Below, piece by piece: positions 1,611 to 60,800 of a stretch of DNA of 64,000 nt (positions are counted from its first letter, which is position 1; every line of letters begins with the position of its first letter). Both the position numbers and the translations under genes were made by a program. The stretch lies in the NCBI GenBank assembly GCA_951406725.2, contig OX597829.1, positions 35,960,001-36,024,000 on the forward strand, read 5' to 3'. The stretch is from Octopus vulgaris. Its lineage: Eukaryota. The notes beneath the pieces were generated by a model that was given only the letters and a program-made list of their open reading frames with translations, did not search any database and was not told where the DNA came from.

Positions 1611-1850
1611 CTCTATTAATAAAGCTGTAAAGACATCGTAAAAATTGTTACTCAGAGTTTCATGTACCCCTTCGTCGGAAAGTTTTGGTCCTACGAAAAC
1701 TGTGATCCAAAATTACGATGAACAGGAACGTGAAACTCTGAGTAACAGTTTTTGTGATGTCTTTGCTGCTTTATTAATAGAGCATATTACTCTACCTCCA
1801 GTATTCGAGTATTGTTTTTTCCAACTTGTTTCACATTTGTGTTAACACTG
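1611..1850 (+). mobile_element. PLE-like terminal fragment with an inverted partial copy, each arm with a decayed hammerhead motif
   Basis: 1611-1688 is the diverged reverse complement of 1707-1782; the arms contain CGATGA or CCGACGA ... GAAACTCTGAGTA. Confidence 0.5.
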
Positions 1851-1859
1851 GTGTATATA

Positions 1860-2231
1860 CAGGCTGATTCAAAAGTCCCCATACATAGGAAAAATTGATA
1901 TTTTTATAAGAAACAGTTTATAAGATCCCCTAGATCCCCTGATCTGAGCCCTCTTAATTTCTGTCTTTGGGGACATTTGAAAGGCATGGGGTATCGCGGA
2001 AAGATAAAAGACATAAATCATTTGAAGGAACGTATCACCAACTCATTTGCAGAAGTATCACCAGATGTACTTTTAGGAGTTCACAATGAGTGGAGCAAAT
2101 GTATTGCAATGTGTATTCAAAACAATGGTAACCATATAGAACCTCTTAAAGGAAAAAAAAACTGTTCTTATAAACTGTTTCTTATAAAAAGATAAATTGT
2201 TCCTATGTATGTCGACTTTTGAATCAACTTA
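1860..2231 (+). mobile_element. Internally deleted Tc1/mariner-superfamily DNA transposon
   Basis: About 65-bp TIRs (CAGGCTGATTCAAAAGTCCCCATACATAGGAA... / ...TTCCTATGTATGTCGACTTTTGAATCAACTTA), TA flanks, transposase C-terminus PRSPDLSPLNFCLWGHLK...CIQNNGNHIE. Confidence 0.9.
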
Positions 2232-2348
2232 TATGTATATATATATATATATATATATATATATATATATATGTAGTCTGTGATGTGTGTGTGTGTTAGT
2301 GTGTGTGTGTGTGTGTGTGTGCGCGCGCGCGCGTGTGTGTCTGTATGG

Positions 2349-3118
2349 TTGTAGGCATCCGTCGGTCTCAAGAAGTCATGGATCTGCGCCCAAAGAAATC
2401 GTGTCAGCTGCTGATGGCGCGACAGCGTCTTTTGTGACTATACAGGCCCACACGGGAGTGGCAGTTACGCATACAGCGACTGCATTTGAAGGAGCTCTCT
2501 GTCGGTGCTGCTTATTTTCCGTCGATTGCAATTTTCTCTGATGGTGAGTACCAGTTTTTTTTCCGCTCTCTTCATCTCTTCATTCTCTTTCGGGGTATTT
2601 GTCTCCATTGTGGGCAACCTCCTCACATCTTAAGACGTCCAGCTCAAGCGAATTCATATCTTTCTTACAGACATCTATGAAACGAAGATGATGTCCTCAT
2701 GCTCTGTGCCGGTAGCCAAATCCCCATTCTGGAGGTCTTTTGCAATCCTTCCGTCTAGCATGCGATGAACATGACCGAGTCAGCGCAACGACGCCGCAGG
2801 AGCAAGAGGTGTATGCTGGATATCATGGCTCGTTTGAGGACTTAGGTGTTCTTGATGTGGTCGGTGTCCAAGATGCATCATGATGAAAGACGTTGTAACG
2901 GCGCTCCTGCCTAGACTAGAAGTTCCACGTCTGACTGCCATAAAGTAGTGTACTAAGAACGCATACCTTATAGACAACAATCTTGGTGTTTGCAGCCAGT
3001 ATTTTTCCCACACACTCTCTTTGTGATCCTGGTAAATGTGGAGGATGATTGTCCGATTCGCCCTTTGATCCCAGGGTCCAGGGAGGTCATCAGCGATGGT
3101 AGAGCCGTGATAGGTGAT
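2349..3118 (-). mobile_element. RTE-clade LINE, 5'-truncated and frameshifted ORF 3' end
   Basis: Minus-strand fragments TYHGSTIADDL, RIGQSSSTF, CVLSTLLYGSQTW, LGHVHRMLDGRIAK, terminal zinc knuckle FKCSRCMRNCHSRVGLYSHKRRC, short 3' UTR ending GAGACCGACGGATGCCTACA. Confidence 0.9.
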
Positions 3119-3127
3119 GTATATATA

Positions 3128-56773: not shown

Positions 56774-57951
56774 ATTACATTGTCGTTCAGTTACTGTTTA
56801 CATCTTGTTCAGAGATTTATTATTGCTATATATATATATATATATATATATATATATATATATATAATGTTTATATGTATCTATCTATACATATATATAC
56901 GTATATATATATATATATATATATATGTGTGTGTGTGTGTGTGTGTATTTATATATATACATTCAAACGTACATACTATCAAACAAACAGACACACATAC
57001 GCAGACATACATAATATATATATATATTTATATATATAGATACACAGAAAACACGCATATGTACTATGTTTGATGAAGAAGAATATCGAATCGAATGGCT
57101 CCTTGTGTGAAATCTTATACACTATACGATTCATGATCCGGCATACCTGCAACACAATATAATATAACGAATATTGGAACGTTGGTTTAATCTTTTATCC
57201 GAAGACATATACACTCATAATAACTTCGCAATCATATATGTATATGTGCATGTGTATTGATCGTTTAGCTTTTATCTTTTACTTATTTTAGTACTATTTC
57301 TTTTTAAAGACTAGTACCGATTCTACTTTTCCAAGATGCTAGATTACGGGGACGCAAATACTAGGTTAGTTAGTTAAACAGAGCTTCTCAAGCGGTGACC
57401 GTGGGACAAACACACACCCTCACACTCTCATTCAGGCACATACACGCGCATATCTATGTATACAGCGGGCTTCTTTCATTTCCTATCTGCTAAATATGCA
57501 GATAAAGTTTTGGGCGGCCCAAGGTGGTACACAGTGACACTGCACGCCGCACCATGTGGTTCTGAAGCATGTCTATTACCACACAGCCACACATTCGTCT
57601 AGGCGTATGTAAATATAGGCGCGTGCGTGTGTGCATAGGTATATTCATATACATACATGCGTATATATATATGTATATATAAGTATATATATGTATGTAT
57701 ATATATATATATATATATATATATATATATATATATATATATATATATATATATATATAATATATATATATATATATATATATATATATATATATATATA
57801 TATATATATATATATATATATATATATATATATATATATATATATATATATATATATATATATATATATATATATATATATATACATACATACATACCAA
57901 ATATATATATATATATATATATATATATATATATATATATATATATATATA

Positions 57952-58340
57952 TCGTCGTCGTGGCACTCCACCGCTTACAACGACGAGGGTTCCAGCTGAT
58001 CCGATCAACAGAACAGCCTGCTCATGAAATTAACGTGTAAGTGGCTGAGCACTCCACACACACGTGTATCATTAACGTAGTTCTCGGGGGAGATTCAACG
58101 TGACACAGAGTGTGACAAGGATGGCCCTTTGAAATACAGGTACAACAGTAACAGGAAGAAAGAGTGAGAGGAATTCGTGGTGAAAGAGTACAGCAGTATT
58201 CGCCACAACCCACTGCCGAAGCCTCGAGGAGCTTCAGGTGTCTTTGCACTATTAACACTTACAATGCCCGGTCTGGGAAACGAAACCGCGATCCTGTAAC
58301 TACAAATCCGCTGCCCTTACCAACGGGATATTGCGCCTCC
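57952..58340 (-). mobile_element. SINE family C (tail alpha)
   Basis: Reverse complement of 5490-5842. Confidence 0.85.
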
Positions 58341-58400
58341 ACTTATACGTGCACACACACACACACACACACACACACACACACACATATATATATATAT

Positions 58401-58615
58401 AGTTAATCCAAACAAGAAAACACATAAACAAAAAAAAAAACACAACAACGCGAGGACGTGGAACAAATAAAGTATTATTGGACGCTCAGGAAAGAAGGGA
58501 AGAAGGAGGGTTTAACGTTTCGAGCGGAGCTCTTCGTCGGAAACATAGGAGAAGGAAAGATCCCGAGAAGGGAAGACAGAGGAAAAAAATCGCCAGTGAT
58601 ACTCACGAGGTCACA
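58401..58615 (-). mobile_element. F1 hammerhead element, full length
   Basis: Same boundaries as 11369-11571 and 40122-40330; (TA)n flanks. Confidence 0.8.
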
Positions 58616-60671
58616 TATATATATACATATATACACACATACATATGCATGCATGTATATACACATATATATATAGATATGTATATACGCATCTATATAT
58701 ATATCTACATGCATATAAGTATACATACACGCGTATATACACACATGGGATGTCAGTTGTGTGTGTGACAGTTGTAAGTGTTGTGTATGAGTGTATGATG
58801 TTCGTGACGATGCACAAATACGTGTTTCAATTTACCAATATTAACTGAAATTTGTCTCCCTTTACGTAACGTAATTTAACAATGAGATGATAAAATAAAT
58901 CGATGAGTACCAGGCAGAAATACGTACCTGGGATTTTTTGATTGAGAAAGCCCGCATGCTCACAGTCCACTACCAGAAAGTGGAATATGAATAAAATAAG
59001 ATAAAAATATTTACATTTGTATTCGTATGTATTATCCTGCTGTCTATAGATATATCTAGATGTATCTCTCTACCTTAATATATACATACACACACATGCA
59101 TACAATCTTATATATATATATATATATATATATATATATATATATATACACACGTATATACATACAAACATAGATACATGCATATATATATTCATACATA
59201 TAAATATATATATATATATATATATATATATATATACATATATACACATACATATGTATATACATATGCATATTCATACATATATACATATATACATATA
59301 TATATATATATATATATATATATATATATATATATATATATATATACATATATACACATACATATGTATATACATATACATATTCATGCATATATACATA
59401 TATACATATATATATACATATAAATATATATATATATATATATATATATATATATATATATATATATATATATATATATATATATATATATATATATATA
59501 TATCTTTTAAACGTTTCCGTCATTAAATTGCAGCCATGATTGAGATCCGGAGGAGCTAATTTTTCTTAGCGTAGTACTTGTTCTAGCGATGTCTTTGCCG
59601 AACAGCTAGGCTACTGGCACATAAACACACCAGCATCAGTTCTCAAGCGATGGTGAGTGGACAAATAAAGACACAAAGATGCTCACAGATAAAGATTCAC
59701 ACACACACACACACACATACATACACATATATATATATATATATATATATATATATATACCTACATATGTACATGCATCCTTATCTATGTATGCGTGCGT
59801 GTATATATATATATATATATATATATATATTTACAAATATATATATATATATGACAAACACAACGTGGCAAAGTTAGGTAGTTACCCAGCTAGCAAGGTT
59901 CACACACATACGCGCGCAAGTGACATGTGAATGTGTATTTGTGTGTGTGTGTGTGTGTGTGTGTGTGTGTGTGTGGGTGTATGTATGTGTGTGCGTGCGT
60001 GTGTGTGTCTGTGTCTGTGCGGGTGTGTTTGTGCGCATGTGTGTGTTAGGTCCAGCTTATTCGCCCATGAAACTCTGGTCTATGTAAGTGTAAAATATAT
60101 GATCTTGAAATATTAATAATTACGAAATCGCCAAAAATGAAAGTAGAAAGAAAATATTGACCTTATTGCATATATGTAGTAAGGCAGATAATCATTAAAA
60201 TGTGGTCGGCGATATTGGAAAAGACATTTCTTTTATATCACATCTACAGTTTTTTTTATATATATTGCAGAAACAAGGCATTATTAAAATCATTGGCAAA
60301 TATATTCGTTTACTTTTGAAAAAGAAAAATTAGTGTACGATAAATTATGTTTATCAGTTGCTGATTTATATGAAAATTTGCAATCAATTATAAATAAGAT
60401 TAGTTTTAAGCTCCATAATAATTTTAGAATATATATATATATATGTATCTGGATGTATATATGTGGATGTAAGTATGTAGGTTTGAGAGTTTGCGAGGAT
60501 GCATGAAAGAGCATATGCTGGTGTGCGTGTGTTTATATATATATATATATATATATATATATATATATATATACATATATGCATACATATACATATATAT
60601 GTGTGTGTATGATATATAAGTGCGTATTGATGTACGCATGTATGTATACACACACATATGTGTGTGTGTGT

Positions 60672-60800
60672 GTTTTTTTCCAGATTATCTGCTCCTTCCT
60701 CCTTTTCGGTTTCTGACGAAGACACATGCTCGAAACGTCATTTCCATCCTTATTTTTCCATCTAAACCTTTCATTGAGCGTCATTTTAATACATCCACTA
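60672..60800 (+). mobile_element. F1-related element F3 with a canonical hammerhead core
   Basis: CUGACGA-AGACACAUGCUC-GAAACGUC (60713-60739); stems I and II decayed. Confidence 0.55.

Follow-up and report, generated by a model that had tools for sequence, protein, structure and literature searches.

The stretch analyzed here, referred to as the window, comprises 64,000 nucleotides of the Octopus vulgaris genome (GenBank assembly GCA_951406725.2, contig OX597829.1, positions 35,960,001 to 36,024,000). It is AT-rich animal DNA with a GC content of 31.6%, and simple repeats occupy 36% of it. Scattered through it are short repeats that carry hammerhead ribozyme motifs, which a sequence-only reading had described as about 18 diverse ribozymes. 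The positions given for them proved accurate, as 17 point sites were recovered within a few bases and two sites given as ranges were the arms of one fold-back. The hammerhead signal in the window is genuine, well beyond that of shuffled sequence, and the copies are mostly decayed. However, the diversity was overstated, since nine of the 19 sites belong to a single family, here called family A.

The sites are cited below by position and strand. The 5' box of the core reads exactly CUGANGA at eight of the 19 (14848+, 15179-, 28638-, 31977-, 32902+, 41979+, 43082-, and 60713+) and CCGACGA, with C at U4, at six (1678-, 11444+, 17277-, 39557-, 40255-, and 58540-). One site (43910+) has a U3-A8 core, and the box is damaged at four (28230- with A9U, 37451+ and 39768- with A6U, and 1715+). 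Thus, the uniform CUGANGA form first attributed to the motifs holds at eight sites only, and the published core (exact CUGANGA or the U3-A8 variant) is present at nine. Stem III was correctly described as nearly always self-complementary (16 of 19 sites; the exceptions are 17277-, 28638-, and 41979+). The arm at 1715+ was judged by eye, so stem and closing-pair scores cover 18 sites. Among these, the G10.1-C11.1 closing pair is present in 15, and helix I has at least three contiguous pairs in 10, including seven of the nine family A sites. An unpaired base between A9 and G10.1 is found at all nine family A sites and is missing in seven others.

These counts were compared with shuffled DNA. A fixed descriptor (C or U at core position 4, stems I and II of at least 3 bp, and a palindromic stem III) gave 4 matches, versus 0.075 expected from 40 shuffles, and 8 versus 0.53 when the stem I requirement was dropped. 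It supersedes a stricter descriptor that barred a 4-nt stem III and a long stem II and found only three sites. A log-odds scan with a 6-bit cutoff, tuned after the C4 and U3-A8 variants were known, was set against 608 shuffles of the non-microsatellite DNA of the window. Nine matches reached at least 18 bits, versus a null mean of 0.02, and 16 reached at least 12 bits, versus 1.02; the shuffled control suggested along with the sequence-only reading thus came out clearly in favor of the motifs. Eight of the nine strong matches belong to family A. Four listed sites (37451+, 41979+, 43082-, and 60713+) score 6 to 9 bits, within the shuffle range, and 1715+ fell below the cutoff. Despite these low scores, 60713+ is judged genuine by its homology to family A, and 43082- is supported by its mirror arm. 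The sites 37451+ and 41979+ are indistinguishable from chance and are considered doubtful. Four further candidates (8364-, 3295-, 7583-, and 60249-; 11.6 to 13.5 bits) were not accepted, as they fit the null of about one match at 12 bits or more.

Another suggested check, a scan with the Rfam hammerhead models, returned 0 matches at the gathering score in the window, and no hammerhead was found at an E value of ≤10 on 40140-40330. The best 150 of 617 weak Rfam matches were all microsatellite-driven miRNA models.

Family A unites nine of the listed sites with a 3'-only copy at 16213; all of them align as one family with subfamilies. Its members are as follows.

11372..11571, + strand: near-full copy; hammerhead at 11440-11474, C4, one stem II mismatch (log-odds scan, homology).
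14789..15226, both strands: subfamily A2, tail-to-tail pair around (TA)n, 98.8% identical over 161 bp; hammerheads at 14844-14878+ and 15149-15183-.
16213..16302, + strand: subfamily B, 3' part only, outside the earlier list (homology).
17197..17342, - strand: copy with a 3' deletion; hammerhead at 17247-17281, C4, stem III palindrome broken (ACAU) (log-odds scan, homology).
39480..39564, - strand: short copy; hammerhead at 39527-39561, C4, intact stems (log-odds scan, homology).
39653..39800, - strand: subfamily B copy; hammerhead at 39737-39772 with A6U (homology).
40113..40330, - strand: near-full copy; hammerhead at 40225-40259, CCGACGA, stem II GAGC/GCUC, stem III ACGU, predicted cut after 40229 (26.9 bits).
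58402..58611, - strand: near-full copy; hammerhead at 58510-58544, intact except for C at U4 (26.9 bits).
60674..60835, + strand: diverged relative; hammerhead at 60709-60743 that has a canonical core but broken stems I and II (homology).

The family A unit is about 200 to 215 nt long and carries the motif GUUU-C(C/U)GANGA-A-GAGC-loop-GCUC-GAA-ACGU-U-AAAC with pyrimidine-rich flanks. The four longest copies share 91 to 96% identity and start 74 to 83 nt upstream of C3, and the 3' end lies 86 to 112 nt beyond the predicted cut in six of the nine copies. No tandem copy occurs among the 10 members in the window. An ATG at stem I opens a frame that ends after about 24 codons and has no recognizable N terminus of a Penelope-like element (PLE) protein; a protein search with the family A sense frame returned no longer protein containing it. 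When metagenome contigs were scanned for exact matches to the family A motif, none was found. In the A2 pair, the + strand hammerhead has a canonical core with a 3-bp stem I, and stem I of its partner is broken; a read-through RNA of this pair would fold into a duplex of roughly 160 bp (predicted pairing, 94%). In the copy at 16213-16302, homology begins no more than about 2 nt from the predicted cut site, a single case at an AT-rich boundary.

Beyond the window, family A is very abundant. In a survey of sequencing runs under coded species labels, 20 of 24 listed runs contained family A or part of it, covering four species labels and two metagenomes with small shares; runs X19 and X20, which had a small share, were counted as no evidence. 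Contigs matching at 85% identity numbered 18,382 in X3, 11,466 in X6, and 5,528 in X7. The peak summed depth was 1.6 to 1.8 × 10^5 times the median depth of eight listed contigs (X3 and X6), a ratio that is no copy number and at best indicates the order of magnitude. At both family A boundaries, the loose ends with the best support are TA-rich, with 473 further loose ends outside the listing, and one X3 contig shows a head-to-tail joint. Contig-derived depth profiles are unable to show whether depth changes stepwise where the cut is predicted. In three runs, canonical U4 accounted for 22 to 28% of the family A depth and C4 for about three quarters. Since the U4 share is well above the 2 to 7% seen at other varying CpG sites in the family, both U4 and C4 subfamilies exist.

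The remaining sites lie in the following contexts.

1611..1782, both strands: old head-to-head fold-back (77% arms), stem III ACUC-U-GAGU; two decayed hammerheads at 1645-1682- and about 1712-1749+.
28161..28234, - strand: decayed hammerhead in single copy, with A9U, a stem II region of 46 nt, and stem III ACAAUUUGU (11.4 bits).
28539..28642, - strand: hammerhead in single copy; the core is canonical, stem I has 7 bp, the stem II region spans 77 nt, and stem III contains a mismatch (12.9 bits).
31666..33214, both strands: young head-to-head fold-back, arms 99.7% identical over 359 bp; hammerheads at 31871-31981- and 32898-33009+.
37447..37485, + strand: doubtful site with A6U and no stem I (6.4 bits, shuffle range).
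41975..42041, + strand: doubtful site with a canonical core and non-palindromic stem III (9.2 bits, shuffle range).
42995..43234, both strands: old head-to-head fold-back (67% arms); hammerhead at 43042-43086-, G-C at 15.1-16.1, stem I broken.
43768..44112, + strand: fold-back whose inverted 3' end is short; hammerhead at 43906-43977, U3-A8 core (19.1 bits).

Together with family A, these make nine contexts with no mutual local similarity beyond shuffles, so the proposal of at least eight unrelated contexts stands, although only when decayed and doubtful sites are counted. Four families carry long stem II regions of 43 to 85 nt. In the young fold-back at 31666-33214, both hammerheads have a canonical core, an 84- to 85-nt stem II region, stem III ACAGCUGU, and a 2-bp stem I with distal pairs in addition; 32902+ folds well (z of -4.05). 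The hammerhead at 43906-43977 combines a 43-nt stem II region with stem III ACCAAUUGGU and a 4-bp stem I. In all four head-to-head hammerhead fold-backs, one arm ends 1 to 8 nt from a microsatellite and the other runs on. TA-rich surroundings are common, with (TA)5+ within 250 nt on both sides of 11 of the 19 sites versus 19% of random unmasked positions; the copies behind this figure are non-independent, the window has 254 such runs, and the comparison is with random positions rather than other repeats.

The same 18-nt word occurs in direct orientation at 31364-31381 and 33317-33334, flanking the 31.5- to 33.2-kb fold-back (0.03 expected), and sits on both flanks in similar irregular TA blocks of about 60 nt. 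Judged by its placement, it is possibly a long target duplication; an alignment-score control for these flanks gave no separation from other TA-rich DNA. Two further fold-back palindromes, at 56532-56773 (97.5% arms) and 48517-48623 (76% arms), have no hammerhead match. As in the hammerhead fold-backs, one arm directly abuts (TA)n, and the opposite arm is longer by 54 or 115 nt.

As reported previously, minimal hammerhead ribozymes (min-HHRs) of metazoan PLE pseudo-long terminal repeats (pLTRs) have a helix I of 3 to 5 bp, a bulge after A9, a G10.1-C11.1 pair, and a palindromic helix III, and they occur in many families per genome, mostly as solo copies, with opposite-strand pairs 100 to 700 bp apart (Cervera and de la Pena 2014, PMC4209133; here and below, statements refer to the portions of the cited papers that were available). 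Family A shares with their consensus the U-rich flank, the bulge after A9, the G10.1-C11.1 pair, the short helix I, and the palindromic 15.2-16.2. The window likewise holds multiple sequence families, mostly solo copies, opposite-strand pairs, and a U3-A8 variant, and the UUGAUAA core of 43910+ is also that of the Schistosoma mansoni(3) min-HHR. The earlier identification of the motifs as PLE-type minimal dimer hammerheads therefore fits their anatomy closely. Unlike in the published set, no motif here is tied to an open reading frame (ORF). Three further features set the window apart from the published set. Family A is mostly C4, and the two text matches to CCGA in the supplement of PMC4209133 are not cores; four families have stem II regions of 43 nt or more; and the abundance of family A appears far above the reported 2,000 to 9,000 min-HHRs per genome.

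The insertions also resemble those of PLEs, for which an inverted pLTR plus a tail, solo pLTRs, and pLTR lengths of 193 to 218 bp have been reported (Arkhipova et al. 2013, PMC3846280). The inverted pLTR with its tail is also described by Craig et al. (2021, PMC8557442), who report that Neptune and Naiad PLEs are biased toward (TA)n. The unit of about 200 nt, the solo copies, and the (TA)n surroundings agree with this, and the fold-backs with one longer arm recall the inverted pLTR plus tail. In contrast, no short target duplication is readable in the (TA)n here, and the tail-to-tail A2 pair is the rarer PLE arrangement. For PAc, a Poseidon-type PLE of the green anole, reverse transcription starts within the RNA at +111 to +118, about 90 nt beyond the ribozyme cut at +26. 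Cleavage needs the protein, and insertion in vitro can proceed without it being cut (Frangieh et al. 2024, PMC11167929). Family A is similar in having its hammerhead about 90 to 110 nt upstream of the element 3' end and in its AT-rich targets, whereas the PAc ORF starts inside the hammerhead and the family A frame at that place is short.

The most probable explanation, to which we assign a probability of roughly 80%, is that several unrelated short repeats with genuine minimal type-I hammerheads are likely pLTR leftovers of different PLE families, for the most part predicted to be inert at their present positions. A PLE protein encoded at some other locus would nick AT-rich DNA, and reverse transcription would begin inside the RNA, some 100 nt downstream of the hammerhead. 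Short copies would then keep only the pLTR, either solo or as a head-to-head fold-back in which one arm is longer. The hammerhead would travel as a passenger, able to cut only when dimeric or assisted by the protein of the element, and would decay after insertion. Family A, mostly in the C4 form, was amplified to a very high copy number and has fixed ends.

Several results weigh against this explanation or limit it. Neither a reverse transcriptase nor a GIY-YIG remnant was found in any of the 145 ORF stretches of at least 50 amino acids in the window or in 15 read-through frames. The missing ORF is expected, because the copies are short; with no PLE protein gene found, the origin is one that we infer, and by comparison with PLE min-HHRs, which the motifs match in kind, it is likely but unproven. 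The extended arms of the fold-backs, about 60 to 175 nt, exceed the published 30- to 40-bp tail and may be flanking DNA. The raw-read run X22, which shares its species label with the best holders, yielded only 2 family A reads in 12.9 million records, which is unexplained; filtering or labeling is a possible cause. Selection on the hammerhead structure of family A is suggested, not shown. In the nine-copy alignment, 90% of the stem cells are paired, and in three runs none of the 10 strictly conserved core bases was listed with a variant of at least 4%, while fewer constrained than free positions varied (2 of 29 versus 3 of 6; P = 0.026). However, constrained positions vary no less than the flanks (2 of 29 versus 18 of 173; P = 0.74), and most of the varying sites are CpG. 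Covariation, also suggested earlier as a check, was not significant in the nine family A copies: 1 of 10 pairs changed on both sides, and 35 of 500 shuffles reached the same score.

The idea that the family A hammerhead is a fossil or a coincidence within an ordinary repeat like a short interspersed nuclear element (SINE), and that the single-copy sites are chance matches, could draw on the empty Rfam scan, the insignificant covariation, the four sites in the shuffle range, and monomer folds no more stable than those of shuffles (z of -0.5 to -0.8). We consider it the least credible of the alternatives. The best copies score 27 bits, where the null mean at 20 bits or more is 0.00; ARAGORN sees no tRNA-like head in family A; and unrelated families converge on the core, the closing pair, and the palindrome with different stems, including the compensated U3-A8. 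For 37451+ and 41979+ alone, chance remains a fair account. A very different proposal is that family A is a non-LTR retrozyme, in which double self-cleavage of tandem master arrays would release monomer circles, with the dispersed copies as their dead offspring. Retrozymes of this kind in animals are, like family A, short noncoding type-I hammerhead repeats thought to derive from PLE pLTRs, the unit of about 210 nt lies within their 150- to 450-bp range (PMC7229834), the monomer share across families spans 0 to 1 (10.64898/2026.07.22.740005), and the X3 contig with a head-to-tail joint would agree. Yet retrozymes are tandem units with canonical hammerheads and circular RNA, whereas family A occurs as dispersed monomers and fold-backs with minimal hammerheads (PMC7229834; 10.64898/2026.07.22.740005). 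None of the copies in the window is in tandem, stem I is 3 to 4 bp with none of the loop-loop contacts of retrozyme hammerheads, and the copies are not permuted at the cut, as their starts lie about 75 to 83 nt upstream of the core and their ends some 100 nt beyond the cut. A doubled copy would also pay 20.8 kcal/mol, relative to the free ensemble, to adopt the double-hammerhead fold. Altogether, a retrozyme origin seems quite unlikely.

The same energetics bear on the suggestion that the motifs act on host transcripts, with neighboring same-strand copies pairing through their ACGU palindromes to cut pre-mRNA or release small RNAs. Three same-strand ACGU copies do lie within 700 nt (39557-, 39768-, and 40255-), run X7, guessed to be RNA, has thousands of family A contigs, and the start of the copy at 16213 lies close to the predicted cut. 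Nevertheless, the double fold of the natural 40255/39557 pair is predicted to cost 24.2 kcal/mol (an equilibrium value, like that for the doubled copy, that includes neither protein nor tertiary contacts). Both of these copies carry U4C, which considerably lowers hammerhead activity in vitro, although one viroid tolerates it (PMC3088659), and C4 is accordingly predicted to weaken cutting in family A; the middle copy has A6U. Published min-HHR monomers were not cleaved and dimers only a little (PMC4209133), fold-back copies are predicted to pair arm to arm and bury their motifs (71 to 94% paired), and contigs cannot show RNA ends. With no tandem copies, an unfavorable double fold, and X7 only guessed to be RNA, the pre-mRNA cutting and circular RNAs once proposed for these motifs are unsupported, and we regard action on host transcripts as very improbable. 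A more speculative variant retains the PLE enzyme and treats family A as a SINE-like element with about 10^5 copies. The enzyme would prime at the first 5'-proximal internal start copy and run off the RNA 5' end, leaving a solo pLTR in the manner of a strong-stop product. A U4C ribozyme that spared its own template would then have driven the success of the family, so the genome would record selection against ribozyme activity, and rare copies such as that at 16213 would record cut templates. We think this unlikely as well and prefer the explanation by PLE pLTR leftovers.

The occurrence of solo hammerheads from multiple families is already published, so the basic finding is not new. The large non-autonomous, microsatellite-targeting radiation proposed earlier is borne out insofar as the main family is very abundant and TA-flanked, but its multi-family solo remnants are of the known kind and make no new radiation. 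What is somewhat unusual is a C4-dominated, fixed-ended, very abundant family together with long stem II variants. An O. vulgaris repeat paper describes 31 recently active Penelope-like families, with no mention of ribozymes in the available portion of its main text (PMC13282606), and 235 Rfam hammerhead_1 loci are reported for the giant squid (PMC6962438). Beyond that count, our literature search, with subscription papers mostly outside its scope, found no report of such motifs in cephalopods and no PLE family dominated by U4C.

Other elements share the window. A two-part SINE-like family of about 20 copies is split by a CA/TA run (4145-4548, 10761-11140, 13512-13888, 46519-46924, and others), a second repeat family has about six to seven copies (16399-16629 and others), and a third lies at 5494-5841, 8622-8789, and 57953-58322. 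In the Pfam search of the 145 ORF stretches, taken outside microsatellites, only a mariner transposase helix-turn-helix remnant (PF17906; 3369-3692, + strand) passed the cutoff, and the 15 read-through frames, 12 of them near hammerheads, gave no match near the hammerheads. Two short elements with terminal inverted repeats lie at 1865-2226 and 44306-44725. The regions 21166-21555 and 2341-3210, both on the - strand, read like C-terminal regions of long interspersed nuclear elements; a sequence search found 53 relatives of the former, up to 76% identical.

The role of PLE hammerheads is debated in the literature, where precursor processing, protein-assisted cutting, and a passenger role have all been considered. 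Rfam misses the motifs described here entirely. A high-copy family with both U4 and C4 subfamilies offers a natural test of this role. As family A is mostly C4, its spread probably did not depend on efficient cutting. If the C4 form indeed cuts worse and yet spread more, cutting would be dispensable or even costly for the spread of the family.

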